A stretch of DNA of 50,636 bases, counting the filler, from Jimgerdemannia flammicorona (Eukaryota), in assembly GCA_003990765.1 (NCBI GenBank). It is 2 parts of 2 records of this genome, joined end to end, with 100 filler letters (N's around TTAATTAATTAA, not from the genome) between each part and the next. Parts side by side here need not be neighbours in the genome. Positions count along the whole stretch, not along the records: positions 25,370 to 50,636 come from RBNJ01000859.1; 1 more part is not named here. One strand, written 5' to 3'. The notes beneath the pieces were generated by a model. It searched no databases, was not told the DNA's origin, and saw nothing but the letters and a program-made list of their open reading frames with translations. Made by a program: the position numbers and the translations under genes. Positions 11,253 through 50,630 of the stretch are shown here, in pieces (position 1 is the stretch's first letter; each line of letters starts with the position of its first letter).

Positions 11253-11621
11253 GTGGACATGGGTTAAGGTTGCAGATTAAGAGAAGGCGGGGGAGGATGG
11301 TTGTCGATAATATTGGCATGTTGATTGTTGGTGTCGGTGAGTTTGGTGGATTTTGTGAAGCTGATTTGGAGATTGCAGAATTGTCTTCATTGCGTTTGAA
11401 GTGTGTAAGTCAAATGTGTGCCGTGCAGTCACTTGGTTCAAACATGTTAGCCTTTTGTACATACAAAGACACGCAGCCTGCAATTGACAAATGGGATTAG
11501 AATGAAAACATATAACCCTTTACTTGTTGACGAGACACATTGCAGTGCGACCATCACGTGGAAATTGTCATTGGCAATTTGTCAACCTCTCTCTATACCT
11601 ATCTATACTTATCACTTAACC

Positions 11622-17349: not shown

Positions 17350-18133
17350 TCGATCGCAGGAAATCGTTCTGTAATGATACCAAATTCATATCGTAAGGTA
17401 GAGAAATTTGACTTTGCGGATAGTACAGATAGTCCATCTTTATGTATGGTGGTGTTTTCCTACCACGATATATTAGTGAGATGCCTGCATATCTATTCTT
17501 ATACCTTTTTCTAAAAAATAAAAGTCAGGAAGGTGCGGTACGCACTTTGATGGCAATCTCCGATGGCGAAACAAGGATTTCTGATCTATGATCCATATTG
17601 GTTATTGAAACCAATGCGTTATCACTCACGCCGTCGTTTTTTTCTCTTCGTTCCTTTTGTCTGTTTTTGTGTTGCAAAATCTCAATAACATGGGATTTCA
17701 CATACAATGATATGCCGTATTGCCATTCGTGCGCTCATGCCATTAGATGATTAGCTTTTGAAATAATAAATAAACGTCACTCAAATTTTGAAGGTACTAC
17801 GAATTACTCGGCGACCATTCTGCAGATAATTAGTCTCAGCTAATCGTCGTTCTACGGTAAATAATTAACTACAGAATTCTTAATCGCAGACCGCAGACCA
17901 CAGACCGCAGCCCACGCTTGGTGGTGAAGGGCCAAACGACGATATTAGCCAGTTTAGCGAACATAAAAAAAAGACACATAACCCTCTGTTATGTCATAAC
18001 CATAAGATCTGAAATGAATGTTAGGAGATTGTCCACTTGGTTCAAACATGTTGGCCTTTTGTTTGTACCTACAGAGCTACGCAGCCTGCCAATATCACAA
18101 ATTTCCGGTACTGTATATTGAGTACATGTGTAT

Positions 18134-21198: not shown

Positions 21199-22397
21199 TT
21201 ATTTTTATTTTATTTTATTTTTTTAACGGACTCAAAGTCTCATGGATTTTTATTGAAAGGGAACCTAGACTATATAGGCCAAAACCCTCTCTTACCACTC
21301 ATCAAGCACTGCTTCTCCATTAACCTAAGCTAGCTATTGTCCAGCAGCTCAACTATACCAGACACAATAGAACCTATATTGATCCATACCTCATTCTGTA
21401 TACCATGCTCTCTCTACTACTAAGGGGAGCTCAGCCATATGCCAATGACCAAAAGTATATGTCCAAGACCCTAACATATGTATAAGGCTATGCCCGAGCT
21501 AAATAGAATAGCCTCTGTCATCTCAAAGAAAATGATAGGTAAAGAAAAAACTCTTATCAAAGTATATCACAATGGGTAGGACCTAGTTCTCTCAGTCAAG
21601 ATTAGTAAAGAACTTACATATGAGGTGAGAGGAGACCCCTAATATCCCACTACTCAAGCCTGTGAGCCTCAATCATATTGCTGTATCAGCTCTTAGTTCT
21701 AGTTGAGTGCAGCCAAGATATCTGAAATGAGTAGCCTTGGGCCCTCCAACCTCCCCCCAATGACTAGAGCCCAACTGGCCAAATCACCAAAAGAAGCTGA
21801 GAGTATCACCTACTACCTAACTACTCTGTACCAATCCAAAGGCCCCACTAAAGCAGTACCCACCCTAACCCTGATGACTGCCCCCCATCTGGTACTCTAC
21901 TGGTTTACTATTATTACCCTTCCTCCTATCTGTAATGGTCATCTCTTCTTCTATCTCAATAATACCTGAAAAATAGTCACCTATACTAGAACCACACTCA
22001 CCAAGAAGCTTGCTAAAGCCAGAGGGCCCCACTATAGATACTGAGGATCTATAGGTAACCTATACTGAGCACTTGATGCCCAAGGTTAGCTGACTCTCTA
22101 TACAGCCTATGACATACTAAGATAGTACTTTATTGGTGATGGTAAAAGGAAAAAGATACCACACCAAAATAGATGTACTCCAGACTCAGCCAAAAGTATC
22201 AGAAACTGTGAAAAAGTAGAGAAGACACTGATATGATACTGATAAAGGGGCAACTCATCACTATTGCCTTTTTCTCACTACCTTGCAACAGGTACAGCAA
22301 ACCAACCCAAGGTAGAGAGAGTAATAATTGTGAAAAGTAGACTCAGAAGGTTATCTACCAAACCATTGTGACTGATAAGGTAGCAGAGAAAGGGGTG
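21199..22397 (-). mobile_element. ~1.2 kb poly(A)-tailed retroinsertion, probably a 5'-truncated LINE of a different family
   Basis: Minus-strand (AAAAT)n tail at 21199-21224 with AATAAA at 21254-21249. Flanking 11-bp TSD ATGAAACCAGT (21188-21198) / ATAAAGCCAGT (22398-22408); the LTR resumes exactly afterwards. Confidence 0.65.
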
Positions 22398-22466: not shown

Positions 22467-23810
22467 GGGATAGAGAGATCAGTATATCTCTCTGGTAGGA
22501 AAAGTGATAGTGCTGAATATATACTGGTTGCCAAAGCTATAGTATATTGAGTATTACTTAGACTTCTTGGTATGGGTGGTCAAAAGGCTGTTGAAGATGG
22601 CCAGGTTATAGATTTTAGTAGACTAGAGGAGCCAGATTAGCTGAGAGGTGTTGATACTATCAGTGAACAGAGGTGGACTTGGTCTAGTGGACTTTACCAA
22701 GTATCTGCACTATTTGAGGGCATGGTGGCTAAGGCAGGTGAGTAAATTGAAAGGTTAAGAGTGAGTGCCCCTTATGCAGAGAGTGTGGGAGACTTGGTAC
22801 TCTCCTTGAGACACAACTGGTGATCTGCTCTCCATGGTGGCTCTTGAAAGGAGTAAGAAGATATACTACAAGAGATTCTGGTAGAGAGTTGTGGATAGTA
22901 CCCACCACATTGGTCTCTGGTGAAGGGATAATGAGAGGGAGGAGAAATGGAGTCCACAGATATAGAGATAGGACTACCTATTGTTAGGAGATATACTGGT
23001 GGAGAATTTTCAACTAGAAGATGGTATAGAATATTTATAAGAGCATAGAAGGAATTTGTGGTCTGAAGTATAGTAGGGAGTGGAGATTGATAAAGAGTAG
23101 GACTAGAATAGAGTCTGGTCCTGATATAAGCAGATGGCAAGATAGCTCTCCCCCAAGCTCTGGGTAGTATAGTGGTGGATTTTGAGGTATAATATCATGC
23201 TAAACTACTGGTCAGGACACTTGGTGAAAGGGAGTATAGTGGAGTATGAGAAGTGTCTGGATGTTGAGCAGGTGGAGGGTATAGTACAGACTTCTGAGCA
23301 TTGACTTAGAGAGTGCAAGGTTCTGGGAGATTACTGACAGATTATTGAGGACTGACTGGAGCTGCAATCTTTGGAGAGAGAGGAGGGGGAGAGGTGAGAT
23401 AATCTTTGGCAGAGGTTAATGAGAGGAGTTAGAGATGAGTAACTGACTTTGGAATAGACTCTGACCATCTGAGTTGGGCTGGCTAGACATTGGCTCTATG
23501 TATTTGAGAATGGTCAGTAGTTAGTAGTTGGGGTAAGGGTTGTGAGATAGAAGTAGCTATTGATAGATATTTTGAATGAGTGATAACAGGGGTAGAGACC
23601 TGGTAGAAGAGACCATAAGAGACTTATAGAAAGTATCTACAAGAAGAGCAGAGAGAGGATTGGAGTTGCTGAGAGATTGATGACCCTTAGGAGAGAGGGG
23701 GGGGAAGAGAGATTGGGGGGTCTATGTGGGATTGGGTGAAAGATATGTCAGTGCCTTTGTACTAATATAGATCAGAGATTAATTGGTAATAAAGTGGAAG
23801 TCTAAGTGAC

Positions 23811-23842
<32 letters not shown>
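22467..23842 (+). mobile_element. 5'-truncated L1/Tx1-type LINE (ORF2 C-terminus, 3' UTR, poly(A))
   Basis: Degenerate VLNIYWLPKL.YI.YYLDF..GGLGLVDF and C-terminal zinc-knuckle region homologous to the right-hand LINEs. AATAAA then A-run 23814-23842. 15-bp TSD GAAATATTTGAGTTA (22452-22466) / GAGATATCTGAGTTA (23843-23857). Confidence 0.88.
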
Positions 23843-23845
<3 letters not shown>

Positions 23846-24360
23846 ATATCTGAGTTATCCAAGTTATCTAAGTTATCTGAGTTATTCAATATTTCCAGAA
23901 GCTTGCTGATTTAGGAGAATCTCACCAAATTGAGTTATCTGCCAAATCTATACAAGGAATATCACTAAGATCATCCTGTTAGAAATTGCATACTTTTGGA
24001 GATCATTGCACTACACAGAGATTGTCATGCAGAAATCACATAAGGAATCCACTCATGTCATATATAAATTGCTGCCAAGAACCCATCCCAATAAGGAAAT
24101 CAACCATTATATCCAGATTGACTATTATACCACTAAACACCAAGGACCTCAGGAATTATAGGAACATTTTGTTGCTTTTTGACAAAGTAATTGGGGGCTC
24201 AAGCCAAACTACATCAACCCCCAGCCTTGTAATTTGCCTCTATTGAGCTGGGCACGTTACAGTATATGTGATGTGGTTTTATGCTGCCAGTAGATAAATA
24301 ACCCTTTGCTCGCAATGGCATCGGCAATTTGTCAATCTCTCTTTATAGTACCTAATACCA

Positions 24361-25269: not shown

Positions 25270-25369
25270 NNNNNNNNNNNNNNNNNNNNNNNNNNNNNNN
25301 NNNNNNNNNNNNNTTAATTAATTAANNNNNNNNNNNNNNNNNNNNNNNNNNNNNNNNNNNNNNNNNNNN
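25270..25369. other. Assembly gap or artificial contig linker
   Basis: 100-nt N run containing TTAATTAATTAA (25314-25325), which places stops in all six frames. Confidence 0.95.
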
Positions 25370-27260
25370 CCCCCCCCCTACCCTTTCCCAATGAAAGACC
25401 ACTTTGTCTAACACAATCTCCACCCTTCCACAGATCCTTGCTACCAAACTGTGATGTCACCCACCCTGAGGACCCCAACCCACCCACCATCCAGTCAACA
25501 GATCCCCCAACAGCTCCTCCCACCATGAAACCTTCTCCCACAGCTCCATCTACTGCCCCTCCTCAAATACAAAAAGCCAATGTCCCACCAGTCCCACCTA
25601 CACTGCCAATACCCACCCTACAGTAAGCCAGCTATCCTCCACCCCACCCACTAGCTGAGATCTCAAGTCCTCCCAGCGGCCTCCCTCACCCACCAGCCTC
25701 CACCCCACACCCAGTCTATTCTCTATTTCTACCCAAAAGTCCCCCAAAACCTCACACTCTCCCAGCCAATGTTCCAGCATCTGCACAAGTCCTCTAGCTT
25801 GCCCTACATTGTAACACTCCTCACAATCATACTGGCCACCATCCACCAGATGCCCAGTATGAAAATTTAACATGACATTCCTCTGCAGCATTTACCACCA
25901 TACCACCCAGAACTTGGGAGGAAGCCACCTCTGTACCTCAGCACTCCAAGACCAGATACCTGCCCAGTCCCACTCCTTGCTGATCCCTGCCACCTGCCAG
26001 CCACTTGGCCAAAGATCCTGGCCAAGACCCTGCTGACACTCCACTCCATCCCCAAAATTAAATGTATCTAGCAGAGCACCCCCCAGGAGCAGTCTATCCC
26101 ATCACCACATATCAGGCCCCCACACTACCTCCCCCTCATTACCTTGCCAGCACAGACCAATGCAGTGTGCTCCATCTACCACCCCCTACCAAAAACTCTT
26201 AAACTGCAGCCACTGAGTTCCATTCAGCCTTACCAAAGAGAGCAGATCTCCAGAGGACCCTCAAGGGGAGGTCCTCATCTCCCACACCTTCTGCAGCAGT
26301 AGCACCCAACCTCCTCCCTGCAGTTCAGCAGCTCTCTTCAACCACCAGGCTTGCACACAGTGTAACCTCTTAGGAAAATCCACAAGGCCAAGACCTCCCC
26401 TGACCACTGGTGTTGCAAGCATATCCCAACTTATTGGAGACCTCCTCCCTGCCCGAATCCAATCTCTAGCCATCTTCACCAGCCTCTTCACTACCCAAGC
26501 TGGGAAGTCTAGGTGATAGGCCACGTACCACAGCTTGGAGAACCAGTATACATTCAGAATTGTCATCCACCTAGCCAGAGAGATATAGCAGCCTCTCCAA
26601 CTCTGAAGGGCCTCCCCCCAAATGGTCACCCTGCTCTCCCACCACACTCATGGCAAGACAGAACCATATACAGAAAGGAAGATGCCCTGATACTATACCA
26701 CCTCACCAGTAGGGACAATTGTTCCAAATATGTCTCCACCCACTAGTCTATTTCCAAGCACTAGCATCTCACACTTATGCCAGTTGAGCTTTGCCCCTAA
26801 GTGAGCCTCATACCATTCCACCGTCTCCTTAAGTGCCTTGACATCTGCTACAGACCCAAGTCCAACCATCATATCATCAGCAAAGGCCCCCACCTTCCAC
26901 ACTACACTATATATAAAGAGCCCTGCCACCTTCTGGCAAATTCTATCTATCAACAGCTCCAACAAAAGGGCATAGAGAATAGGAGACAGAGGGTCCCCCT
27001 GAGGAACTCTTCTATCCAAGGAGAATGCCAAACCTCTGTGGCCATTATACATCAGCACCACCCGACTGCTCTCTAGCAGCTTCAATATAGAAGCCCAAAA
27101 TCTTGGGGGAACACCTATTCAATCCAATACCTTGCCCAGCCAGACTCACTGAACATAGTCATAGGCCTTCTCCTGGTCCAAAAATACCAACCTCTCATCC
27201 AGTCTACAAGCCTGGGCCCCTTCAATGACACCATGCACTCATGCAGTCCCATCTCTTATA
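25370..27260 (-). mobile_element. LINE A, 3' part (degenerate ORF2 RT C-half and CCHC region)
   Basis: VPQGDPLSPILY, GAFADDM, GAKLNWHKC, CEEC..EHWLGEC. Continues at 34684 across the TSD GTCCCATCTCTTATA. Confidence 0.88.
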
Positions 27261-29369
27261 TTTTTTTTTTTTTTATAGTCTCTTGGACTGTCCTTTATTA
27301 CCGAAGTCTATAATGTTAACAATACGATATCTCCCCCACCCTCACCCAATACCCCAGGGACTCAACCCCTCTCCCTTAACCTCTCCCTGCCCTAGCACTA
27401 CCCAATTACCAACTACCCGAATCCTCCCACCACTCTTCCGAGATATACACTGCACCAGACCTCTGCAGTTCCCCCCACCCATACCCCAGCCTTGCCACCA
27501 GCTATTCAAAATGTCCAACAGCAATCATTCCCAATGGGCCACCTTGGCACTAACCCTGACTCGATGCCCTTCTTCAAAGACATGAACCCAGTGCCCAGCC
27601 AACCCAACCCACATAGCCAAATCCCAACCAAGGGTCAGCCATTCATCCCCAACCCCACCCACCAGTTGCCAGCAAAGCTCACCCCATCTCCCCCTTCTCT
27701 CTCCCTCAATAGCACCCAACTCCAACCGGTCCCTAATACATTTCCAGAACTCCTCCAAAACCTCACATTCGCTAAGCCAATGTTCAGGCATTTGTACCAC
27801 TCCTCCCTCCTGACCAACATTGAAACAATCCTCACACTCAAATACCCCACCAGCTACCAAGTGTCCCGACTGATAGTTCAACATCACATTCTACCATAGA
27901 ACCCACCACCACACCACCCAGAACTTAGGGGGCAGCCACTGCCTCACCCATTTGCTCCAATGCCAAAGGCCATTCCAATTCCACTCCTCACCAATTCCAA
28001 CCCTCTGCCAGGCTTCTGGCCACAGGTCTCCACCCAGGCCTTGCAGATACTCCAGACCCTCACCAAGCTGAAAGCTCTCCACCGGAATGCCACCCAGCAG
28101 AAGCCTGTCCCACCTCCACATCTGCAGGCCCCAAACCTCCTCAGCCTCATCACCTCGCCACCAAAGTCCAATTTTCTTAGCACCATCTACCACCCCCCAC
28201 CAAAAGCCCATAAACCGCATCCTCCTGCTCCCCTCCATGGCCACCATCATGAGCAAGTCACTGGAACCACCATGTGGGGAGTACTGAACCTCCCACAATC
28301 TCTGCATGAGTGGCACCCACTCCTGACACTAAAGCTCACTCACCCTTCTCAGCCACCAGACTCTCAGACAAAGAAGCCACTTAGTAAAGTCCACCAAGCC
28401 CAGCCCACCTTTTTCCAAGGGCAGTATGAGCACCTCCCAACCAACCTGGCTTTGCTGCCCTCCCCAGATCCATGACCTCGCCATCTTCAACAGCCTCTTG
28501 ACCACCCAGGGTGGGAAATCCAGATGATACCCAACATACCACAGCTTTGGCATCCAGTACACATTCAACACCATCACCCTTCTGGCTAGGGACATATGCC
28601 GGCCTCCCCAATGCAGCAAAACATTACCCCACTCCAGAAGTTTATGGTCCCACCATGCCCGGGGAAGAAGGGACCCAAACACTGAGAAGTAGATCTCCAA
28701 GTAATGCACCAGTTCACCAGCTGGTACCACTGTCCCAATGACATCACCGCCAACAATTCCAGCACCCAGCACCAGTGACTCACATTTGTGCCAGTTCAGC
28801 TTAGCACCAGAACCTCTCTCATACCATTCCACAGTCCTCTGCAACTCTCCCACATCCACCAAGAAGCCCAGCCTGACCACTATGTCATCAGCAAAGGCCC
28901 CCACCTTCCAATTAACCCCTAAAATGTCCAAAACTCCAATCTGATGCCGAATTCTGTCCAGAAGTGGCTCCAGGGAAAGGGCATACAAAATGGGTAACAA
29001 GGGGTCCCCTTGCGGAACCCCATGGCTCAGGGGAAAGGTCACTCCCCTATGGCCATTGATGACCAATGCTGCCTGACTATCCTCCAAGAGGCTGATCAAT
29101 GATCCTCAGAACCCCGGAGGGATACCAATCCGTTTCAGCACCCCCTCCAGCCATATTCTCCACACTCTATCATAAGCCTTTTCTTGGTCCAGAAATACCA
29201 ATCTACCATCCACCCCTGCCATCTGGGCATCTTCAATCACTCCATGAACCCAGGCTGTCCCATCTCAAATCAACTGACCACCAACAAACCCACACTGTTC
29301 CACACTAAGCACCTGTTGAGCAATACCTTGCAGCCTCATTACCAAAATTTTTGTCACCAGTTTGTGGTC

Positions 29370-29371
<2 letters not shown>

Positions 29372-29425
<54 letters not shown>

Positions 29426-31003
29426 ATATCCTTTTGCCTCATTTATTAACTATCTATAACATGCCACATATCCTCATATAACATCAGTAGCCCCATTTCA
29501 CCCCAATCTCAACTCACTCCTAGCCTTGTACCTTTAGGGTGTGAGTTGCGACCTCACTGGCCAAGTAACTAGATCCTCTTACCTGGCCTACCCCACCCAG
29601 TAGGTATGTGTTGTGAGCCCCAACCACCTCAAGTATTTGGCATCTAGTGCACCTGACCTACCCCTATTAGTACCTCCTGTCTTGCCCATCTAGCCTATCT
29701 TGCCCACCCATGTTGCCTGTGTTACCATCTTGCCATCTTGCCTGTCTTGCCTGCCCATGTTGCCCATGTTACCATCTTGCCATCTTGTCCATCTTGCCCA
29801 TCTTGCCCGTCTTGCCCATCTTGCCCATCTTGTCTGCCCATGTTGCCTATATTGCCTGTGTTGCCTGTGTTGCCCGTATTGCCTATATTGCCCGTTTTGC
29901 CCATCTTGCCCATGTTGCCTTTCTTGCCATCTGCCCATCTTGCCCATGTCACCCATCTTACCATCTTGTCTGTCTTGCCCATCTTGCCCATCTTGCCCAC
30001 CCATGGTGCCTGTGTTGCCCATGTTGCCCATGTTGTCCATGTTGCTCATGTTGCCTGATTGCCCATGTTGCCCATATTGCCCGCCTGTATTGCCCATATT
30101 GCCTTGCCTGCCCGTATTGCCCGTGTTGCCTGTGTTGCCCATTTTGCCTGTTTTGCCTGTTTTGCCCATTTTGCCCATATCGCCTGTCTTGCCCATTTTG
30201 CCTGTTTTGCCTATGTCACTTGTCTTGTCATCTGCCCATCTTGCCTATGTCGCCCATCTTGCCATCTTGCCATCTTGCCCATCTTGCCCATCTTGCCCGT
30301 CTAGCCTGTCTTGCCCATCTTGCCCATGTTGCCCTTCTTGTCATCTTGCCATCTTACCCGTCTTGCCCATCTTGCCTGTCTTGCCCATCTTGCCCATCTT
30401 GCCCACCCATGTTGCCCATCTTGCCCATCTTGCCCGCCCATGTTGCCCATGTTGCCCATATTGCCTGCCTGTGTTGCCCATGTTGCCTGTATTGCCTGTA
30501 TTGCCCATATTGCCTGCCTATGTTGCCTGTGTTGCCTGTGTTGCCTGTGTTGCCCGTTTTGCCCGTTTTGCCTGTTTTGCCCATCTTGTCCATGTTGCCT
30601 GTCTTGCCCTCTGCCCATCTTGCCCATGTCGCCCATCTTGCCATCTTGCCATCTTGTCCATCTTACCTGTCTTGCCCGTCTTGCCCATCTTGCCTGTCTT
30701 GCCCATCTGGCCCATATCGCTCATCTTGTTGTCTTGCTGTCTTGCCCATCTTGCCCGTCTTGCCCATCTTGCCTACCCATCTTGCCTGTCTTGCCTGTCT
30801 TGCCCATCTTGCCCATCTTGCCCATGTCGCCCATCTTGTTGTCTTGCTGTCTTGCCCATCTTGCCCATCTTGCCCATCTTACCCATCTTGCCTGCCCGTG
30901 TTGCCATGTTGCCCGTGTTGCCCGTATAATACCTTTTCTCCAAGTTGTGTCGAAAACCATTGCTTGAAGTTTGTGTAATGTGAATTGTACAGAAGAAAGG
31001 TGT
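29372..31003 (-). mobile_element. Element C: non-autonomous composite retrotransposon (LINE 5' UTR + VNTR + unique 3' region + poly(A))
   Basis: 16-bp TSD ACCAGTTTGYGGTCTA (29356-29371 and 31004-31019); 49-nt poly(A) at 29372-29420; AATAAA at 29447-29442. Positions 30930-30972 match the LINE A 5' UTR (38958-39000) at 39/43 nt. Confidence 0.88.
29678..30925. repeat. ~1.25 kb minisatellite of 9-bp (and 8-bp) units TTGCCCATC/TTGCCCATG/TTGCCTGTC/TTGCCATC with higher-order blocks
   Basis: Directly visible. Landmark CTGCCCATCTTGCCYATGTCRCCCATC recurs at ~29931, ~30232 and ~30611. Confidence 0.97.
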
Positions 31004-34000
31004 ACCAGTTTGCGGTCTATATCGAGAAGCATAATTGGCCACCAGTTCTTCCAGTCCTCTCTCCTTCCTTTATCCTTATAGAGCAAGGAGACTAGCCCTA
31101 AGCGCTGTCCCCCAATCCAAACACCAGACCGAAGAACTCCCTTGCACATAGCAGTCATTTTCTCTAGCACCTTGCCCACCCCAGTCATCTTCTGCCAAAA
31201 ATCCCAGGGAAGTCCATCTTCTCTCAGGGCTGTCCCCTTACTCGTTGAGGCCACCACCCTGCAAATTTCCTCACCACTCACTGGGTCCCCCAATGCCCCA
31301 AGTCCCAATTCAGGGTTCGGGTGCCAATCCTCCAGCTGCCTTTCAACATCTAGAGTATCCAATCCTCCTTCCTCCTCACTCCAAAGATTCCCCCACCGGG
31401 TTCGCAGTAGGCTCAGAATCACTGGAGTCCCCACCATCAGCTCACCATCTGCATCCAAAACTCCCTCCCACCGCTGCCTTGTTCGTTGTGCTTGTAACAA
31501 CCATGACAGTAACCTAGTAGGCCTCTCCCCCTCCTCAAGCCCCTGCCACCGCAGGTGGGCCACCATTCCCTGCAACTGCTCCTCCTCCTCCCTTCGTAGC
31601 ACCCCTTTAAGTTCCTCTACCTCCTGCTGGATCCTCACAATATGCCAATCAGTCACTTCCCCATCCTCCAGCACACCTGCCCATCTTTCCATGAGTGCTG
31701 CCAGATGCCATAAGGCCCACCATACCCACCGCCTTCGCTGGGTACATTTTTCTTTCCCAGCTTCCCTTCAATACCTCTGAGCATTTGCCTTCAGTCATCT
31801 GCAGCAGTCCCCAATCTCCAGTCCTTGTTCCTGCCACCTGCCTATATTACTCACCACCTCTGTTTCCCAACCCTCCCACAACACCCTATTCTCCAACAAG
31901 GAAGAATTAAGCTGCCAATGTCCAGGCCCATCCTCATTTCCCCCAAACCTCCCCCCTCCAAGTATCCCCCAGTGATCAGACCATGGACACCATACAACTT
32001 CCAGTCCTGACCAGACATCTGCTTCCCAACACTCTGCTGATAGAACCCAGTCAATCCTGGAGCCCAGCCCAACCACCCAGTGGGTGTACACCTGCCGATC
32101 CACCCAAAAATGCCTCCTCGAGTCCACCAGAGAACTCAACCTCTCCATCTCCAACCAGTCCCCCAACCCACCACTCTCACCCTGCATGCCTCTCCCCCCA
32201 TCAGTTCTGACCAACTTCTTATCAGATATCATGTTGAAGTCACCCCCCATACAGTCCAGGCAAACTCCTCCCAGTATACCAGCTTCTTTCAATTGGCAAA
32301 TCCAATCCACCCTCTCCCCTCTCTCAGCTGGGCAGTAACAAGACCCAACCATCAGCGGGCCCCATCCAGGCCTCTTCCACACTCCCTACACCACCCGAGA
32401 CCCCCAATGTCTAATGTCCCCAATGTCCCCCATCCCTTTCTGAATGAGAATACCCACTTTCCCCCTCCAAACTGCTGCACCCCCCCTTTCCTTAGTCCAA
32501 TCCTGTAAGTCCACCTCCACCTCATAATGGACATCCTGCAACAAGAAGAGGTCTGCATCCAGTCCCTTCAGCCAACCAAATATAAACTTCCTCCTAGCTG
32601 CCCCCCTTAACCCATTAATGTTCAATGAGAATATCCTAGTTGTACTGTTCATATTGAAGAAAAGTTGTAATAGAGACCCCAACCTATAATTCCATGCTCA
32701 TCTCATCCCCCACCAGATCCAAGTGCCACTCAGCTTCCAAGTCACCCTCCATATTATCCTGAGCATCCAGTGCCCCCAAGATTTCCTGACATTCCACCCT
32801 GTCCACTTCCTCCATATCCACCTGGTAGTCCAAGCAGACTGCATGCCACTTCTTCAGTCCCTTCCTCGAATTCCACAAGAGAAGTGCCCTGTCACTTGCA
32901 ATCCTCCTAAGTTCCTCCTCCCACTGATCATCAACTTGATATTCAACCGACTCCAGGAGGACAGCCAGGATCTCATTCCTCATCTTCCTTGGTACCTCCT
33001 CCCTCTGTAGGATCTCCTCCCAGTGCCTCTCCTCCATCACCCGGAAGTCCTCACCCCCCAGCTCTTCAGCCGCTATCCCCTCTAAGGTCTTCCACATCTA
33101 CTTCTCCTCATCCACTGCCTCTGCCGCCCCCTGAGTGATTTGTCCCACATCCACCTTGGGGTCCACCAGTGCGCTCCTCCTCACTGACCCATCCCACTCC
33201 TCATCTGGCACATCCATCAACTCCTCCTCCCCCTCTGCCCCATCCAGAACACTATACTGAGGGTGCACACCCTCACCCATATTGGCATCCACCTCCACAT
33301 TGCCCTCCCTCGCCACCTCCACTCCAATCTGAGCCCCACCCTGGGCCATCCCTCCCCCCTCAGCCCAGGCACTCTCCTGCAACCCCGCAACTCCTTCCCC
33401 TGAGCTTCCACCAGCCCTACCCCCACTCAACTTCACCAACAGCTCCTTCTGGATCTGCCTCTCCTGCATCTTCTCCCAGGCCCCCTTCTCCATCTGGACC
33501 CTCTTCCCATCCACCTCCCCCACCACTATCCTGGCCTCAAACTCCTTCCAGACCAACCTCCTCCTCATAACTGCCCCTTCCAGATCCTCCAGAGCCTCCA
33601 ACAGGTCCTCCTCCTCCTCCTAGGTCCCCTTCACCCTCGTGACCTTACACTCCACCAGTCCCCACCTCAATTCTGCTGGCCAGTCCCTCGACTTCCCTGT
33701 ATTCTCCTTCCGAGCCAGCCTCACCCTGACATCAACATCACCAGTACAAAGCTCCATTCCCTCCCAGACCTTGAACCCAACATCAACAATCTTGCTGTAC
33801 TCCTGGATTACTGCCACAACCAACTCTCTGGTCCTCTCCTACAATACAGTAGGGAGGTCCAACACTGTCAACTGCACCACTCGTGGGTCCCAGTGCATGC
33901 ACTGGGCCATAGGAACCACGACCCCACCAACCATCACCCCCTTCTCCATGGCTGCCAACAAGGTATCTTCCTCCTCAAACCCCACCTCAACCCCTTCCTT

Positions 34001-34683
34001 TCCTCTCAAAAACTTCACCAACACTGCTCACTTAGCCTCCTGCACCACCAGCCCCAAAATCATCCTTGCCGTCACTGCCAAGCCCTGGAAGCATATTGTG
34101 TCCACGAATTCTGACCTTGACTTCTTGAGTAATGGGGCCGACACCATGCCCATCACCCCATCCGCCAGGTCCCCAGGCCTTGTGCCCACGCCCAGTCCCG
34201 AATTGCCAACCACCATCACATCTGGATTTTTTGCCAGATCCCCAGTCACAGCCCCATCAACAGTCACATCTCCAGCCCCTACTCCTGCTCCTCCTCTGCT
34301 ACCTGAGACTCCCCTGGGCACACCTCTCTGTCCCCCAGCAGCAGCTGTCGACACCATCCCCAGGCCCAGCCAGCCATCCAGGCTTGAGGCCATCTTGCCC
34401 ATTCTGACCTTGTCAGCAAAGGTCGACCTCTCCCCTCCTCTCTGCCTCAGCCCTCCCCTCCCTCCACCACAAGTACCCCGGCTAGCCATCGAGGCCCCTG
34501 GCATCCCCAAACCATCTCCCCTCCTCCCCACCTGCTGCCAGCCAAAGGCGCCGTCACCCCCCTGCCCAGTACACTCACCAGTTCGATCATTGCCATCCAT
34601 GTTGCTAGTTGCTAAATACTGAAAATGTAGTAATAAGTGTAGTCAAAGTCTTGTGTCACCCGAATGTTACTGGTGAAAGTCCT

Positions 34684-37600
34684 GTCCCATCTCTTATAAG
34701 TCTGCCCCCAACAAAGCCCCACTGCTCCACCCCCAGCACCTGTTGGGCAACTTTCTGCAGCCTTGCAACAATCACCTTAGTCACCATCTTCCTGTCCATA
34801 TTCAGAAGTATGATTGGTCTCCAATTCTTCCAGTCTTCTCTCCTCTCCTTGTCTTTGTACAATAAGGCCACCAGTCTGAGATCCTGCTCTCCAACCTACT
34901 CACCACTCTGAAGAACATGGTTATAAAGAGCAGCCATCTCACCCAAAATACCTGGGACCTTTACTATCTTCTTCCATAAGTCCCACAGTAACCCATCCTC
35001 CCCTGGTGCTGTTCTAAACTTAGTTGCCACAAGAACACTCTGAATCTCCTCTCCTTGTACTGGTAAGATCAAGTCACCCAGTCCAGCTACTTGCAGCAGC
35101 CCCCACTCCCCTAGTGTATCAGCAATCACCACCCCATCAGCACCCCCTTCTCCCTCACTCCACAAACCCTGCTATCTCTCCTTCAAAACCCCAAAGATTC
35201 ATTGTGTACCATGCACCATGTCCCCATTGACATCTAAGATCCCATTCCACTGATGTTGCACTCTCCTGGCTTTGAGGAGTCTTGATAAATACCTAGTAAG
35301 CTGCTCACCCTCCTCAAGCCCCTGCCACCATAGCCTAGCAGCCATTCCATGCATATGAGTCTCCTCCTCTTCTCTCAACACCAGTTGCAGTTCCACTATC
35401 TCTAATTTCACCTGCTCTGTCCTCCAATTCTCCACTTCCTCAGAAGTAAGCAAATCTGCCCAATCCATTTGCAGTCTCCTCAGCCTGCTGGAAGCACACC
35501 TCGTGTGCTCCCTCCTCTGCCTCCCAGCATCTCTACTAGCTCCTCCCTGATAGACCTTCACTGCCTCTTTCAATCTTATCCAACAGACACCTACAGCCAA
35601 ACCCTCATGCCTCTAGATAACAACCTTCACCTAAATGTCCTCCACTCATGAGTCCCACAACTCCTGCTCAGCCAGCAGAGAGGAGTTAAGGTGCCAATGT
35701 CCGGGTCCATCTCCACTCTCCCCAAACTGCCTCTGCCCCAATAGTCTCCAGTAATCAGACCATGGGCACCACTCCATCTCCAATGTCTTCCAAACATCAG
35801 AACCCCAACACTCTGCTATCAGAATCTAGTCAATCCTGATACCTAAGCCATTCACCCAATGTGTGTAGACCCTGGTGTTGCCCCAACATGTTCTGCCCAT
35901 ATCCCCTAAGGAGTTCAACTTCTCCACCTCCTCCCATGTATCCAGACCTCCACTTCTCCACCTCCTCCCACATATCCAGATCTCCACTTCTTCCCCCTGC
36001 ACTCCTCCCTCCATCAGTTCTGTCTAGAAGCTGATCCCAAACCATATTAAAGTCCCCACTGAGATTATTGACCCCTTCCTCCAAGAGAATACTCTCCTCC
36101 AGCAGCTCTTCAATCTATACAGTACTCTCACCCCTAACTGCAGGGCAGTAGCAAGAGTCAACTATCACTAACTCTCACCCTGGCTGCTGCCAATCTCCCA
36201 AGGCCAAGCAATTACCCCAGTTTCTGATTCCCTCTAAGTCTCCTCTACTCTTCCTCACCAGAATCGCCACTTTTCCAAACCAAGCAGTAGCCCTACCCCA
36301 TTTCCTAGTCCACTCCACCTAGTGCTCCCAAACGAGTTGAATCAATTCGAATCAAATCGAATTGAGGGTTAAATGAGTTGAATCAAATCGAATTGAGGGT
36401 TTAATGAGTTGAATCAAATTGGGGATTTTTCAATTCGAATTAATTCAAATTGAATCAAAAGTCAAATCAAATTGAGGGTCTGATTTGAACCCTAATTTTC
36501 AAAATGCAATAACTCAGCATAACCTCATCCAAATCTAACGTCCTTTAGCTTGTTAGAATCACATAAATATGGTGAATCTAACAAGCTAAAATATGTTAAA
36601 TTAGGATGAGTTTTCGTCGAGTTATTACATTTTGAAAATTAAGGTTCAAATTGAACTTTGAATCGAATCGAATTGGACCCTTGATATGATCGAATTGAAT
36701 CAAGTTTGGGCCAAATTCGATTCAATTCGATTTGTTGGGAGCACTAACTCCACCCGATCATCCTCATCCTCACACTGAACATCCTGTAGTAAAAAGAGAT
36801 TAGCCTCCAATCCCTTGAGCCAAGTAAAAATATTCTTACACTGCCCAGATCCCCTCAACCCATTCACATTCAAAGAGAAAATGTTAGTTATACTGTTCAT
36901 AAGGAATAATGCTAAATAGCAATTCCATCCTTTACAAGTCCACATTCTGCTCCTCCTGTACCAAGTCCAAGTTATGTTCAGCAGCTAGTTTCCTTTCCCC
37001 AGCTTCCTGTGCCTCCAACCCTCCCAGAGGTTCTACCATTGCCCCATCTTCTCTCTCCTCAAAGTCCTCACAATACTCCAGAGAGGCCTCCCTCCAGAGC
37101 TGCAAACCATGACACTCAGCCCAACAGTAGGCTGCCTGCTCACCTGTGACCACCCCCAGCTCTGCCTTCCTCACCTCATTGACCTCATATCCCTCCTCCT
37201 CTAGGAATATCATAAGAATCTCTGCCCTCAGTGCTTCCACCACTCCCTCTCTGCACAGAATCCATGCCCTGTACTCATCAGGCATTACACACAGGTCCAC
37301 GTTTCCCAACACCTCAGCCATGAGGTTATCCATCACCTTGCTCATCTACAGCAAATTCCCCACCTCTTTCCCTCCTGGAGTCCCTGGCCATCCTGCATCC
37401 AACATCATGGTATCAGTACCTACACTGGCAGCCTCATCCCACTCCTCCTCAGAGACATCCACCAGCTCATCCTCACCAACCGCCACCACCTGGCCCCCTT
37501 CTGCCACATCAGGGACCCCAAAGTGCACTTGCTGGACCCTCTGCATCACAACATCCTCTGTTGTCCTTCTCTTCACAGCCAGGCCCCTCCTGATAAGAGG

Positions 37601-39020
37601 GGGGGGGGTGGCATCCAATTTCTGCTCCCAGACCTCAAAAGTACCATCAGTATAGGAGTCTTTGCCCAGCACCTTCCCAGTTCCTTCCTTGCCTGCCTCC
37701 ACCTCCCATTTTCCCTTACTAGCCCAGACACTGGCATTGATGCCCCCAGACACCTTGGCCCCATCTGCCTTCTTCTTTGCCTCTACTTTCATACTCACCA
37801 ATAGCTCTCTCTGCCTCCTGCACCTCTGAGCCCACTCCTACTGCCTCTTGTCTATGCAGATATGCTTTCCCTCCACAACCTCCAGATGCATCATCTCCTC
37901 AAAGAGCTTCCAGGCCTTTGCCCTCCATTCCACCACACCACTCAACTCCTCCAGTACTTCCAACAAGTCCTCCTCCTCCTCTTCACTCTCCTTCACCCTC
38001 AATACCCTAGAGACAATAGCCCCCCACATCAGCACTGAAGGCCAGTCATTCGCCTTTCCAGTGGCCTCCCTCCCTGCCAGCCTAATCCTGACATCCACAT
38101 CACCTATCCTGATTGCCATCCCATCCCACACCCAGAATCCAATATCTACCACATCGCTATATTCTGCCACCACCTCCTCTACTCTCCTCCTAGTTTCAAC
38201 CTTTGTCACCATAGGTACTCCTTAGACTAGCAGCTATACCACTCTGGGGTCCCACCTAAGGCAGTGCACCATAGGGACCACCACTTCACCAACCACTACT
38301 CCAGTTTTCATTGCCTCCTGCCTCCTCAAAGCCCACCCCCACCCCTTCCAGCCCCTTCAGAAACTTCACTGAGGCTGCCCCAGCCACCTGCTGTGAGATA
38401 AGCCCCAGGACCATCCTTGCCATCACTGCTAAGCCCCAGAAGTACAAGGTAGCCATGAATTCTGAAACTGACTTCTTGAGTAATAGTGCCACCACCAGCC
38501 CCATCATACCATTGGCCAGGTCCCCCATCTGAATTGGTAGCCCCAGCCCCACTCCACCATCAGCTGTCACATCTCTTTTTTTTTCCTGATTCCCCATCAC
38601 ACCTTCATCAGCAGTCCCCCCCCCAGCCACTATACCTCCAGACCCTATGCTCATACCCTTAGCCTGAGGACCTCCCCCCCTTCCAAGGCTTGCCTTACTC
38701 CTTCCCCACAGCAGCACCAGCCCTGACTCCAGCCAGCCATCCACTTCCCTTTATCTTGTCCGCAAAGCTTGAGGGGCCAGTCCTTCTCTCATTACCACCT
38801 GACACCAGTCCTCCTCCATATCCCTTACTGCCCTTCAACCCTCCAAAGGCCCCCATCTCCAGGCCATAACCCCTCCTTACATTCCGCTAGCTGAAAGCCC
38901 CAGATCTCCCTGACCCAATATACCCATCAGAACTCTTGCTTAATGCCATAGTGATAGTACCTTTTCTCCTAGTTGTGTCAAAAACTTTTGCTTGAAGTTT
39001 TTATATAACAGGAGAAAGGT
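34684..39020 (-). mobile_element. LINE A, 5' part (5' UTR, ORF1, APE endonuclease, RT N-half); contains MITE 1
   Basis: ORF1 from ATG ~38949 to ~36932. ORF2 MNSITNIFSLNVNGL (~36900), SGDFN, KNWRPIILLNMDRK..QWGFVGGRLIRDG. 5' end ACCTTTCTCCTG at ~39020. Confidence 0.88.
36320..36746. mobile_element. hAT-type MITE copy 1 (427 bp)
   Basis: TIR TAGTGCTCCCAA / TTGGGAGCACTA; 8-bp TSD ACTCCACC (36312-36319 and 36747-36754); subterminal GAATC/GAATT repeats; internal long inverted repeat. Confidence 0.92.
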
Positions 39021-42000
39021 AGTCCCCCACTAGTCACTGGTAAGGACAAAATTTCCCAGCTAATCTGACTCCTCCTCCCTGCCCAGATCTACTCCTTGGT
39101 CAGTTTCAACAGACTCTTCATCACCCAGGCTGGGAAGTCCAAATTATATGTCAGATACTACAACTTCACCAGCCAGTAAGTATTCAAGACAGAAATATGC
39201 TCCACCAGAGATAAGTGGCAGCCTCTCCAGCTTGGCAGGGTCTCTCCCCAGATAACCACCCACTGCTCCCACCAGAGTTTTGGAAAGATGGACATATACA
39301 CTGACAGATAAATGCCCAAGCATCTCACTGTCTCCCCAGCCAGAACAATTGTTCCAATTATATCTCCCCCCACTACACCATTATCCAGCATAGTGCTCCC
39401 AAATGAGTCGAATCAATTCGAATCGAATCAAATTGAGGGTTAAATGAGTCAAATTGAATTGGGGATTTTTCAAATCGAATCAATTCAAATCAAATCAAAA
39501 GTCAAATTGAATTGAGGTTCTGATTTGAACCCTAAATTTCAAAATGCAATAACTCAGCGTAAACATATCCAAATCTAATGTACTTTAGCTTGTTAGAATC
39601 AAATGTATACCATGAATCTAACATGCTAAAATACAATAAAATTGGATGAGTGTTCGTCGAGTTATTACATTTTGAAAATTAAGGTTCGAATCAAACTTTG
39701 AATCGAATTGGACCTTTGATTTGATTCAATTCGTTGAGAGCACTAATCCAGCACCATTGTTTCATACTTATAGCAGTTGAGTTTTGCCCCAGAGTATATC
39801 TCATACCACTCGATAGTCTCCTTGAGCTCCTCAACATTGGTAATTGAACCCAGTCCAACCACTATATCATCTGAAAAAACACCAACTTTCCACTCAATGC
39901 AACAAACTAAAAGCTCTCCTATCTTCTACCAAATCCTATCCATTATGGGCTCTAAGGATAGTGCATACAAAATGGGATACAGTGGGTCTCCCTGGGGAAC
40001 ACCCCTACCTAGAGGGATAGCTACCCCTCAATGCCCATTATACATGAGTGCAGCCCTGCTCCCTTTCCGTAGGCTGACTATTGCTGCTCAGAACTATTGA
40101 GAGACTCCAATCCTATCTATTACCTTTGTCAACCAGACCCTCTGGACATGGTCATATACCTTCTCCTAATCTAAGAAGACCAGGTACCCATCTAATCCAC
40201 AGATCTGTACCCCTTCAATAATACCATATACTCAAGCCATACTATCCTGAATGAGTCAGCCACTGACAAATCCCTGCTGCTCTTCCCCCAAGATCTGCTG
40301 GGCCACCTTCTGCAGTCTTGCTACAACTATCTTGGTAATCAACTTCCTGTCTATGTCCAGTAGTATGATTGGCCTCCAGTTCTTTCAGTCCTCCCTCCTA
40401 CTTTTGTTCATATACAGTAGTACCACCAGCCCCAGATACTACTCTCCAACCCATTTCCTGGACTGCAGTACCAAGTTACAGAGTGCCCTCATCTCTCCCA
40501 GCACACTGGGGACATCTACCATCTTCTTTCAGACAGCCCAGGGCAGGCCATCCTCATCTGGTATAGTACTCAGTATAGGTGTGATAAGTATCTGATGAAT
40601 CTCCTTCTTCTGCACTGGCATCACCAGGTTACTCCACAGTGGATGCCAATTCCCCAAGGCAAGACCAATGGTAACATCTTCTGCTCCCCCCTCCTCCTCA
40701 CTCTATAAGCCACTCCACTGCTCCTTAAGTGATCTGAGAATGTCTTGTATACTATGTATCAATGTCCCCTCAGATCAAGAACCCCCTCTCACCTCTGCTG
40801 AACCCTCCTTGCCCAAAGGGCCCTTGTGAGAAACTTAGAGGGCCTCTCTCCTTCCTCTAGTCCCTGCCAATATAGACATGCTGCCATACTCTGCACCTGA
40901 GCTTCCTCCTTCTCCTATATACCTGTTGCAACTCCACAACCTCCTTTTTCACCCATAGTAATCTCCAATCCTCCACTCCCTCCAGGGCCATCAAATCTGT
41001 CCAATACTCCAACAGCCTCATCAATCTAGCAGGGGCCCACAACCTCCTCTTCCTTCTCTATCTCCCAGCTACCATATCTGTCTCTCTCCAATAGACCTTA
41101 GCAGCCTCCTGCAGCCTTATCCACCTAATGCCAACTGAGGCACCATTATGTATCCACCCCTCCACCCTTTTCCGAATATCCTCAGCCCACTTGTCCAACA
41201 GTATCTTATTGTCTACCAGAGAGGAGTTGAGGCACCAATGTCCCAGTCTATCTCAACTCCCCCCAAAATGGCCCTGTCCCAGCAGTCTCCAATGATCAGA
41301 CCATGGACACCATTCTGCCTCCAGAGGCCCCCAAACATCCAGACCCCAGTAGTCTGCTGTCAAAATCCAGTCAATCCTCGTCTCCAGGCCACTTTCCCAA
41401 TGTGTATACACCTTCTGTCTCCCCACAACTCCCTGCCAGCATCTACCAAGACACTCAGCCTCTTTACTTTCTCTCATACAACCAAACCTCCACTCCTTCC
41501 TTCTGCCCCCCACCCTCTATATTTGATCCAACAGTGCATTCCTGACCATATTAAAGTCCCCTTTAAGCATATCTACTCCAGCCTCTGCCAGAGTCCCTTC
41601 CTCATGGAGATCTCTCATCCACTCTATATGCTCACCTCACACTGTAGGACAATAGCAGGAGCCAACCATAACTGGTGCCTGATCAGTGCAAATCCACTCA
41701 CTCCAGACCAGCCTGTCTCTCCAATTCTATACATCCCATAGTTCCCCTCTGCCCTTTCTGACCAGAATCCCAACCTTGCTCTTCCAAACTACCTCCTCAC
41801 CCCATTTCTTTATCTATTCTAATTTATCAAAATTATCCTCACATCTGACATCCTGCAAAAGAAAGAGATCAGACTTCAATTCCTTCAGCCAAGCAAAAAT
41901 GTTCTATTGACGAAATGAACCCTGAAGCCCATTTACATTTAAAGAGAAAATTTTAGTTGTACTATTCATAAGGAATAATGTATAATATTAAATGTATCCT

Positions 42001-48000: not shown

Positions 48001-50630
48001 TGGGCAGGGTTATTGGAGAATTGGGGGGCAGCTAATTTGTGAATTCTGCAGATATAAAAAGAAGTCAATGAGCTAAAGTAAGTATTATGAATGGAGGAAG
48101 AGGTTCAGCTGAAGGGGATGATAGTGAGGCTGCCATAGCAGGAGTTGGAGGAGAGGGAGAGACCTACTATATTTCTTTCACAGTTGCTTCAAGCTCAGAG
48201 TATCAGGCAGCAGTAGGATGGTATTTTGGATGAGGATGGGGAGATGGTGGCAGAGACTCCTAAGATTTTGAGATTGCTGAAGACTCACTGGGGGAATTTA
48301 TGGAGTGATGAAGAAGTAGGTAAGGATGCCTGGAACATTGAATGACAGTTGGAGGATTGGTATCCAGACCCAGCTCTGGGTCTGGGGATACTGAGAGACC
48401 CAGTGCAGGGGGAGGAAGTACATGAGGTCTTGGCTTCAGCAAGTAATAGGACAGCTCCAGGAGAGGATGTACTTCTCTGGAATTTTGGGAAAAAGATAGC
48501 TTGGGTATAGGTAGTATTGAAGGAGATGATGGTAATGAGTTATGAGGTCTTTTGATCTGGAACTTGGATTGTAGACCAGTATCTAGGGCTGGTCTCCTTG
48601 CTCTATAAGGATAAGGAGAGAAGGGAAGATTGGAAGAACTGGCACCCAATCATGCTCCTGGATATAGACTGCAAGCTGGTGACAAAGATCGTTATGACTA
48701 GGCTGCAGGGGATCACTCAACAGATACTGGGAGTGGAGCAGAGGGGATTTGTTGGTGGTCAGTTGATCTAAGATAGAACTGCTTAGGTCTATGGGGTAAT
48801 TAAAGGAGCTCAGATAGCTGGGGTTAATGTCTAGTTAGTGTTTCTGAATCAGGAGAAGGTATATGATAGAGTGAGGAGGGTCTGGCTGGAGAGAGTGCTG
48901 AAATATGTAGAAGTTCCCCCAGAGTTCAGGAGGTCATTGATCAGTCTATTGGAAAACAGTTAGGCAGTATTAGTGGTGAATAGATACAGGGGGGTGACTT
49001 TTCTGCTAGGTCATAGAGTACCACAAGGGGATCCTTTGTTACCCATCCTATATATCCTTTCCTTGGAGTCCCTATTGGTTAGGATCTGGTATTGAATTGA
49101 GGGTTTGGACATTTGGGGGTTTAACTGGAAGGTAGATGACATGGTGGTTGGACTGGGTTTATTAGAGGATGTGGAGGAATTAAGAAGAACTGTGGAATTG
49201 TATGAGAGGGGCTCAGGTGCTAAACTCAATGGGCACAAATGTCAGACTCTGGTGATAGATGGCAGAATAGTTAGTGGTGATGTGATTTGAACAGTGGTTC
49301 CAGTAGAAGAACTTGTCTGGTACTTAGGGATCTACTTTTTGGTGTATAGATCCCTTCTGTTCTATGCATGGTGGGAACAGCAGCTACTAGTATGAGGGGA
49401 TGTTCTCTTGAGGTGGAGTGGTTGGCATATATCCTTGGCAGGAAGGGTGATGGTGCTGAATGTGTATTGGCTACGAAAACTATAATATATGGGATATCAT
49501 CTGGACTTCCCAGCATAGGTGGTCAGGTAACTTCTGAAAATAGCAAGATTGTAGATTTGGGCTGGATGGTATAGTCTGATAGGCTGGGAGATTCTGACTC
49601 TGCCTGTTGATAGAGGCAGGCTGGGCTTAGTAGACTTCACCAAGTGTCTATATTGCTTGAGAGCATGGTGGCTAAAGAGAGCGAGCAAGTTAAGAGGCTG
49701 GGAGTGGGCACCACTTATGCAGAGGGTATGGAAAGTCTGGTACTTCCCTCATGGAGTGACTGGTGACCTGCTTGTAATGGTGGCCATAGATGGGAGCAAG
49801 AGGATGCATTACAAAGGCTTTTGGTGCAAAGTAGTAGATAGTGCAAGGAGAATAGGACTTCAGTAGAGGGGTGATGATGAGGGGGAGGAGGACTGGGGAC
49901 TATGGATGTGGAGATAGAACTGGCAACTGCTGGTAGACATATTGGTGAAGGATTTTCAGCTTGGCAATAGAATGGAATATATGTGGGAGCTCAGGGGGGA
50001 CATGTGGCCTGAAGTATGGCAAAGGGTAGAGATTGGCAAGAAGTGGGACTGGAATAGTGTTTGGCTTTAGAGCAAGCAGGTGATGCAGTGGCTTCTGCCC
50101 AAGTTCTGAGTGATATAGTGGAGGTTCCTAAGATGGAATGTGATGCTAAACTATCAGTCAGAGTATTTGATGGTGGATGGCACATTTGAGTATAAGGAAT
50201 GCATGGACATTGGCCAGGAGGGGGGAGTGGTACAAATGCCTAAACATTGGCTAGAGAAGTGAGAAGTCTTGGGGGAGTTTTGGCACAGTATTACTAGCAG
50301 ACTGGGATTGCAGCCCCTGGTGAAGGGGGAAGGAGGGAGATTGGGAGACCTCTGGCATAGGTTAGTGGGCAGGGTTGGGGATGAATGGTTGACCTTGGGA
50401 TAGACCCTGGTAATTTGGGTAGAGCTGGCCAATCATTGGCTTCATGTCTTTGAAGAGGGCCAGCAGGTTGCAGTTGGAGCTAGGGTAGCACATTGAGAAT
50501 GGTTAATACTGGACATTTTGAATGGTCGGTAGAGAGAGTGGGGACAAGGTGGGGGGGGCCATCAGAATCTGGTGAACTGTATTTATAAGAAAAGTGGAGT
50601 GAGGGTTCAGGTGACAGATGGGTAGATTGT
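45012..50630 (+). mobile_element. LINE F, near full-length degenerate L1/Tx1-type element (LINE B-like), 3' end cut at the window edge
   Basis: The 5' UTR (..TAACATTCAGATGACACAAGACT) matches LINE B. ORF1 TFANKVKMG.. ~45090-46990; ORF2 from ~47030 (NSITRIFSLNVNG, GGDFN, PQGDP, GAKLN) with numerous stops. Confidence 0.9.

Follow-up and report, generated by a model that had tools for sequence, protein, structure and literature searches.

What kind of element interrupts the reverse transcriptase (RT) region of a LINE in the stretch of DNA examined here, how was it put there, and does it represent a family or a single accident? The stretch, referred to as the window, is 50,636 nt long and consists of two contigs joined by a linker of the form N44-TTAATTAATTAA-N44 (25270-25369), which lies 4 kb from the insert. 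On the right-hand contig LINEs are nested in one another, all of them on the minus strand, with LINE C (45014-50612, plus strand) lying outside the nest. Within the nest, LINE A1 breaks the RT region of LINE A2, its 5' end lying at about 39020, LINE A1 is itself broken at 34683/27259 by LINE B, and LINE B carries the insert, which is therefore the youngest layer (Table 1). LINE B ends in an A14 tail with a 15-bp target-site duplication (TSD), TATAAGAGATGGGAC, and contains a match to the endonuclease family Exo_endo_phos (PF03372) at 27.8 bits, above the cut-off of 24.5 (E 2.5e-6); judged by its domains and ends, it is an APE-type poly(A) LINE. Its frames contain stops and one frameshift; stops are present in all LINE copies of the window, none of which is intact.

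The boundaries of the insert bear the marks of LINE-type retroposition. On the minus strand, which is its sense strand, the insert ends in a run of 49 uninterrupted A residues (T49 when read on the plus strand), and an AATAAA hexamer at 29447-29442 lies 21 nt upstream of this tail. The insert is flanked by a TSD of 17 bp, ATAGACC(A/G)CAAACTGGT, the two copies of which are identical at 16 of the 17 positions, the sole mismatch being CG versus TG. Upstream of the insert the frame of LINE B reads ...NWWPIMLLDIDRKL, while the downstream piece resumes with VTKILVMRLQ..., and the match to the Pfam family RVT_1 (PF00078) in this downstream piece starts at residue 2 (E 1.2e-18). LINE C, which is 70% identical to LINE B, contains a single uninterrupted copy of the target at the equivalent site and no insert; when the two flanks of LINE B are aligned on LINE C, they overlap by exactly 17 bp. 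Furthermore, short Logan contigs from a soil metagenome run, X1, were aligned to 29100-31300, and seven of those matching the LINE side of position 31004 run on as LINE and not as insert. The duplication, the poly(A) tail, the empty paralogous site and the X1 contigs that continue as LINE thus show that the insertion is genuine and arose by target-primed reverse transcription (TPRT), and the first three of these taken together exclude chance. The insert is an ORF-less product of L1-type TPRT. The nick sites deduced from the TSDs, TCTAT/AT for the insert and TTATA/A for LINE B, are alike, but this is a comparison of two sites only. Since LINE B combines Exo_endo_phos and RVT_1 domains with a poly(A) tail and a TSD at TTATA/A, this genome possesses the machinery that such an insertion needs, and a nick site of similar sequence as well. 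The initial annotation had placed the insert in the RT region of LINE B, had given it a 49-nt poly(A) and had noted an AATAAA about 20 nt upstream; all of this is borne out, RVT_1 beginning just past the insertion site and LINE C being unbroken there. It had also described a 16-bp TSD with a CpG>TpG mismatch, of which the duplication and the CG/TG mismatch are present, but the length has to be corrected to 17 bp.

Table 1. Positions in the window of the insert, its parts and the related sites in the LINEs.
Feature	Position	Strand	Description
Whole insert	31003 to 29372	minus	about 1.6 kb, retroposed, within the RT region of LINE B
TSD copy, 5' side	31004..31020	minus	ATAGACCGCAAACTGGT in sense orientation
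LINE-type 5' UTR of the insert	30916..31003	minus	about 78-88 nt; starts with the canonical LINE first bases ACACCTTTC
9-bp minisatellite	29678..30925	minus	1,248 nt, about 139 unit lengths; about 77% of the insert
Tail	29421..29677	minus	257 nt, G-rich, C-poor; AATAAA at 29442-29447
Poly(A) tail	29372..29420	minus	49 A without interruption
TSD copy, 3' side	29355..29371	minus	ATAGACCACAAACTGGT in sense orientation
Host LINE B	27259..34683	minus	5.78 kb without the insert; about 88-nt 5' UTR, ORF1, APE endonuclease, RT
GCAACATGG at the ORF1 start codon of LINE B	34597..34605	minus	within GCAACATGGATGGCAAT
5' UTR of LINE A1	38948..39022	minus	closest relative of the 5' segment of the insert
Empty equivalent of the target site, paralogous LINE C	48664..48680	plus	uninterrupted

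At its 5' end the insert is a LINE. It starts with ACACCTTTCTTCTGT, which is LINE 5' UTR sequence, and its first ~88 nt align throughout with the 5' ends of all four LINEs of the window (A1, B, C and A2), with an identity of 81% for A1, 60% for C, 54% for A2 and 48% for B. The proximity to A1 is also seen with BLAST, which aligns 30926-30972 of the insert with 38954-39000 of LINE A1 at 89.4% identity over 47 nt (E 1.2e-11), and the insert UTR with 38954-39005 of A1 at 86.5-89.4% over 47-52 nt (E about 1e-12); in addition, a terminal ACCTTTCT is common to both. The first bases of the insert, ACACCTTTC, match the starts of LINE C (CACACCTTTT) and LINE A2 (ACACATCTC), so that the RNA of the insert began at the LINE start. 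A consensus secondary structure, such as a ribozyme-type fold, was not predicted in the 5' UTRs of the insert and the LINEs. If the comparison with the initial 77 nt of L1Tc, NARTc and RIME holds, the retained UTR may serve as an internal Pol II promoter; for L1Tc, these 77 nt ("Pr77") are presented as such a promoter in two studies (PMC1874656, PMC3383444).

Downstream of the UTR, and at the alignment column of the ORF1 ATG in the LINEs of the window, the insert passes into the 9-bp minisatellite. The array as delimited in Table 1 has a lag-9 autocorrelation of 0.67; TRF reports a period of 9 with 128 copies for 29752-30892. The main units on the sense strand are GGCAAGATG, GGCAACATG, GGCAACACA and GGCAAGACA, with GGCAACATG being the second commonest, and GCAACATGG is a cyclic rotation of this unit. 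In the window GCAACATGG occurs 16 times against 0.47 matches expected: 14 of these lie in the array, one is placed at 2577, and the remaining one coincides with the ORF1 start of LINE B, an event for which we calculate a chance of about 1e-3. Because the unit GGCAACATG is the same cyclic sequence as the start-codon nonamer of LINE B, the array appears to be LINE-born and not foreign, and it probably grew from the LINE's own ORF1 initiation region. The array is organised in about three higher-order blocks of 300-380 nt each, which are 77-81% identical and in which the variant units, frame-breaking ones of 8 nt among them, follow one another in a common order. That the blocks have diverged to this degree, while the poly(A) tail is pure and the TSD copies agree at 16 of 17 positions, suggests that the array is older than the insertion, the evolution of minisatellites being so fast that the divergence provides no clock. 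The sense strand of the insert is rich in guanine runs: it carries 81 GGG runs and seven non-overlapping G-quadruplex (G4) motifs (4.3 per kb), with none on the antisense strand, as compared with 0.36-0.52 motifs per kb in the LINE bodies.

The origin of the tail is less readily seen. Its composition (G 0.32, C 0.14) resembles that of LINE sense strands. Comparison of the tail with the rest of the window gave nothing significant, the best E-value being 0.87 with blastn and 0.036 with tblastx, and no match with nhmmer; its predicted fold is not unusual (z -0.97), and no Rfam family was found at E <= 1 on either strand over 29300-31100. The last ~95 nt contain, in collinear order, motifs of the LINE 3' ends, namely ATTGGGGTGA / ATTGGG(G)TGA, TATAGA, TAATAAA and the terminal ...TAT. 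In shuffle tests, the similarity of the tail to the 3' end of LINE B was marginal (z about 2.1, with 47-48 of 1000 shuffles reaching the score), and that to the 3' end of LINE D or to the visible 3' part of LINE A1 was not significant; the 3' ends of LINE B and LINE D, used as a comparison pair, gave a z of 5-8, and none of 1000 shuffles reached the score. The last ~110 nt of LINE A1 are missing at the contig end, and what can be seen of its 3' region, ~150 nt, is without similarity to the tail. The tail may have a LINE-like 3' terminus, the similarity being marginal.

No coding capacity of a LINE is retained. A tblastn search with the RT found no LINE-protein similarity inside 29372-31003. 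The two long frames on the plus strand over the insert, 435 and 411 aa in length, are by-products of a stop-poor repeat. Protein searches with the 435-aa antisense frame gave no relatives of about its length or shorter, and a search of 1.84 billion protein representatives with the long frame yielded a single match of low complexity with 24% identity. On the sense strand, the longest frame of the array is 184 aa and units of 8 and 13 nt are present, so that the array is not a sense-strand reading frame. With respect to the parts of the insert, the initial annotation is therefore upheld throughout: it had proposed a 5' UTR of the LINE A subfamily with a shared terminal segment, which is seen here as 89.4% identity over 47 nt to A1 and the common ACCTTTCT; a 9-bp minisatellite of ~1.25 kb where ORF1 should begin, which measures 1,248 nt and sets in at the column of the ORF1 ATG; a tail of ~255 nt with loose resemblance to LINE 3' ends, which is 257 nt long and reaches a z of about 2.1 against LINE B; and the absence of ORF1 and ORF2 coding, in place of which there are repeat-derived frames without a match to LINE proteins.

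The insert is a real and fairly unusual element. The explanation that we favour, with moderate confidence, is that it is an ORF-less, non-autonomous derivative of the local APE-type LINEs with a LINE-born VNTR core and that it belongs to a family, the membership being the least secure part. Its RNA would start at the LINE transcription start and carry the ~88-nt LINE 5' UTR, nearest to that of A1. In place of ORF1 and ORF2 there would stand the 1.25-kb 9-bp array, formed by amplification of the start-codon nonamer and later enlarged by duplication of blocks of ~300-380 nt, and the RNA would end in the 257-nt tail with its own AATAAA. Once polyadenylated, the RNA was copied into a nick at TCTAT/AT by the endonuclease and RT of a LINE acting in trans, as the anatomy of the insert shows, LINE B being the presumed helper; the copying left the A49 tail and the 17-bp duplication inside LINE B. 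The retained UTR would then drive Pol II transcription from within the element, the G4-prone array may affect the behaviour of the RNA, and the insert would belong to a small family that propagates and has arrays of variable length. The proposal of the initial annotation that the element keeps its promoter and could re-mobilise is a conjecture, all LINEs of the window being defective.

Whether such a family exists depends on copies elsewhere. In the ~50-kb window there is one complete copy of the layout. A search of sequencing runs returned one matching run, the soil metagenome X1 (share 0.05), with no RNA run among the matches. Two contigs of X1 match the tail: a 161-nt contig matches 29436-29548 at 96% identity (4 mismatches and 10 gap letters over 113 nt), and a 150-nt contig matches 29550-29676 at 91% (11 mismatches and 3 gap letters over 127 nt). 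The latter runs on for 20 letters into the 9-bp repeat, a stretch that falls short of the 31-letter rule for bridging and, being in a different register, fits the array at 29978 and not at 29677. At each of the variant sites of the tail listed for X1 the variant letter only is found, the window's own letter being absent, and 29479-29498 is covered by two distinct contigs. A related, non-identical tail followed by the same repeat therefore apparently exists elsewhere, as far as can be read from these short contigs. The depth of the X1 contigs is 35.7 and 5.86 on the tail, compared with 2-4.5 on contigs of single LINE variants, which is a weak hint at several copies, depth not being a copy number. 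Eight joints in X1 place segments of the array in other orders, with the proviso that joints in a metagenome can mislead, and no junction of the LINE UTR with the tail and the repeat is proven in this run. The X1 contigs could also derive from a parent gene or from an orthologous locus and would then not be paralogous copies.

Exact probes placed in other collections returned nothing related. A 22-mer of the tail and a frame-breaking 25-mer of the array each had no match in JGI metagenome contigs, GTDB genomes and IMG/VR, and a second tail probe, a 24-mer, had none in IMG/VR, where a search with the LINE RT likewise found no loci. A plain 27-mer of three array units matched two IMG/VR contigs, both of which we judge to be unrelated repeats: the first (L001) contains a 9-bp array of its own of ~1.15 kb, which at the level of the repeat is ~67% like that of the insert, but it matches neither the tail nor the UTR and open frames cross its array; the second (L002) has just 3.7 units of an unrelated repeat.

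The alternative that survives best is that no family exists and that a single A1-like RNA, or the RNA of a LINE subfamily whose ORF1 start carries an expanded repeat, was copied by an RT that jumped internally or lost the inner part, giving one dead copy, the tail being the 3' UTR of that subfamily. Such an accident would account for the single copy in 50 kb and for the exact probes being blank in all collections, and it is in keeping with a LINE-derived array and with a tail that has a LINE-like excess of G over C and weak 3'-end motifs. LINE 3' UTRs diverge fast, and the contig ends before the final ~110 nt of LINE A1. What makes it unlikely, in our view, is that X1 holds variants of the tail at 91-96% identity without the window allele, one of them running into the repeat, and that the first ~150 nt of the tail are unlike the visible ~150 nt of the A1 3' region, despite an identity of 81-89% between the 5' UTRs.

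A second alternative takes the array and the tail to be the 3' part of a host mRNA or lncRNA, copied by an RT that then switched template to the 5' end of a LINE RNA, with X1 providing the parent gene. Template switching of the RT during TPRT has a precedent in chimeras of the U6/L1 type, and a tail that is unrelated to any LINE sequence of the window, has its own AATAAA and is seen in X1 together with the repeat but without a proven LINE-UTR junction is what such a chimeric retrocopy would leave. The switch, however, would have had to hit the ORF1 ATG exactly, and the array unit agrees with the LINE start-codon nonamer; moreover, neither the lack of a sense-strand reading frame in the array (longest frame 184 aa, units of 8 and 13 nt) nor the strand composition, which fits LINE sense strands, points to a host transcript, so that we regard this origin as improbable. 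That the array or its junctions were mis-assembled, or that the contig is chimeric, is very improbable: long minisatellites are hard to assemble and the window is stitched from two contigs, but a mis-assembly would not produce a matching TSD, a poly(A) tail at one junction and an exact LINE start at the other, and the linker is 4 kb off.

How an ORF-less derivative of LINEs built around a VNTR, the reading favoured here, relates to known retrotransposons can be judged module by module. Most of the known retrotransposons that have a VNTR core and depend on LINEs come from hominoids, where SVA is grouped with LAVA, PVA and FVA of gibbons, which are VNTR composite retrotransposons as well. The VNTR units of SVA, a multi-copy family with VNTRs of variable length, are much longer than those of the insert, which are 9 bp in length and probably come from the LINE start-codon region; the repeat strand of SVA is G-rich and G4-prone. 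According to PMC3956500, SVA is built from a CCCTCT hexamer repeat, an Alu-like part, the VNTR, SINE-R, a poly(A) tail and a TSD. Measured against that description, the insert resembles SVA in being non-coding, in its VNTR core, poly(A) signal, poly(A) tail and TSDs, and in its use of LINE proteins in trans; it differs in that the 5' end is a LINE 5' UTR instead of (CCCTCT)n, in that it has no Alu-like (7SL-derived) region detectable with Rfam at E <= 1, and in its tail, which matches nothing in the window and stands where SVA has the retroviral SINE-R, a 3' module derived from HERV-K. As the only SVA modules recognised are the VNTR together with the marks of LINE-type insertion, the insert is probably no relative of SVA. 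The designation as an SVA-like composite in the initial annotation consequently holds for the VNTR core, the UTR, the tail and the LINE-type insertion marks, but not further, since the VNTR is apparently LINE-born and no SVA-specific module was recognised.

The insert is SVA-like in body plan only, and its logic is closer to that of RIME- and NARTc-type elements. In the pairs RIME/ingi and NARTc/L1Tc of trypanosomatids, the ORF-less, poly(A)-ended partners keep the first ~80 nt of the LINE, as the insert keeps 78-88 nt. In contrast to the insert, these elements are without a minisatellite core, and the 3' end of the insert is not clearly common to the LINE; no sequence relationship between them is to be expected. 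Other ORF-less LINE derivatives are HAL1 of mammals and the LINE-derived, SINE-like Eg-R1 and EGH24 of Blumeria, all of which keep the LINE ends, have lost the coding regions and depend on LINE proteins, but, unlike the insert, are not known to have an expanded minisatellite where the ORFs were. An internal variable tandem repeat is found in EhSINE1 of Entamoeba, a SINE that is LINE-dependent and non-autonomous as well; the insert differs from it in being neither short nor of Pol III type, without a tRNA, 5S or 7SL head. Indeed, ARAGORN found no tRNA genes in 25370-50636 and Rfam gave no matches, and because it has no tRNA or Rfam head the insert is not a Pol III SINE.

Searches of open-access text for SVA-like or VNTR-containing non-autonomous non-LTR elements in fungi turned up general reviews and, judged by title or abstract, no paper describing such an element. 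It is conceivable, and we advance it tentatively, that a soil eukaryote, possibly an early-diverging fungus, harbours propagating, promoter-bearing, ORF-less LINE parasites with a G4-prone VNTR born from a start codon, and that the SVA body plan arose convergently outside hominoids, here with a VNTR whose origin can be traced. The origin of the VNTRs and their part in mobility are open questions for VNTR-cored retrotransposons, and the sequence of the insert itself tells how its array probably came into being, as an amplified ORF1 initiation nonamer beside a complete short LINE 5' UTR. If the insert is one of a family, it would offer a simple natural system for finding out how few parts of a LINE are enough for mobilisation in trans, be it some 88 nt from the 5' end together with a poly(A) signal and possibly a motif at the 3' end, and it could show whether a G-rich array aids this process; if it is a single copy, it would merely be an odd, dead LINE derivative.

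The fungal attribution in the initial annotation is a tentative one. The other contig, across the N linker, carries BTB-SPRY genes, the best sequence relatives of which are 42% identical. In a protein atlas, the taxa matching BTB-SPRY lean towards Mucoromycota, and those matching the LINE RT are mixed.

The two copies of the target-site duplication flanking the element, a retroposed insert built from a LINE 5′ UTR, a 9-bp array, a tail and a poly(A), differ at a single place, CG versus TG (29363-29364 versus 31012-31013). Among the differences listed between the window and contigs of the soil metagenome run X1, 50 of 58 places carry transitions. A period-9 array on the IMG/VR contig L001 (Table) shows ~67% similarity to the element's array at the repeat level; open frames span it, and no similarity to the element's tail or UTR was found on L001. 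The L001 array probably represents a coding repeat with no relation to the element.

Table. Positions of features in the window and on L001.
Feature	Location	Description
Tandem paralogous BTB/POZ genes	window 10287-17565	
AT-rich block	window 18000-22000	30-34% GC, internal duplications
LINE D	window 22484-23885	5′-truncated, A29 end
Foldback/MITE-like element	window 36380-36696 and 39420-39731	two copies, ~320-380 bp
Period-9 array	L001 2168-3321	~1.15 kb, consensus CCATCTTGA; IMG/VR contig, 94.8 kb

The sense strands of the LINEs (minus strand in 25370-44000, plus strand for the paralogue LINE C in 45000-50636) are strongly G-rich and C-poor, with a GC skew magnitude of 0.35-0.54 in 2-kb windows across both regions, while the LINE 5′ UTRs show the opposite bias and are G-poor. 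The 3′ UTRs of LINE D and of LINE B, the host of the element, are clearly related, and the A29 of LINE D is directly followed by 4.8 copies of the 9-bp repeat GAGTTATCT. Sequence within the AT-rich block is duplicated at 18144-18875 and 20486-21198 (80%), and a further duplication involving the block pairs 18988-19395 with 23857-24259 (79%).

At 25270-25369, TTAATTAATTAA lies between two runs of 44 Ns, an arrangement that looks like a contig linker, so that 1-25269 and 25370-50636 are separate contigs; the 3′ end of LINE A1 is lost at this linker. The foldback/MITE-like copies, which share ~85% identity, were inserted independently, one in LINE A1 and one in LINE A2; inverted repeats (TAGTGCTCCC...GGGAGCACTA) form the termini of this foldback/MITE-like element, and its interior contains AT-rich tandem repeats. 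The DNA of the BTB/POZ copies at 11413-13330, 13578-15091 and 15633-17565 shows 82-90% identity, and one gene of the cluster has a weak SPRY match, under the Pfam cut-off. The closest relatives of these genes outside the window are just 42% identical.
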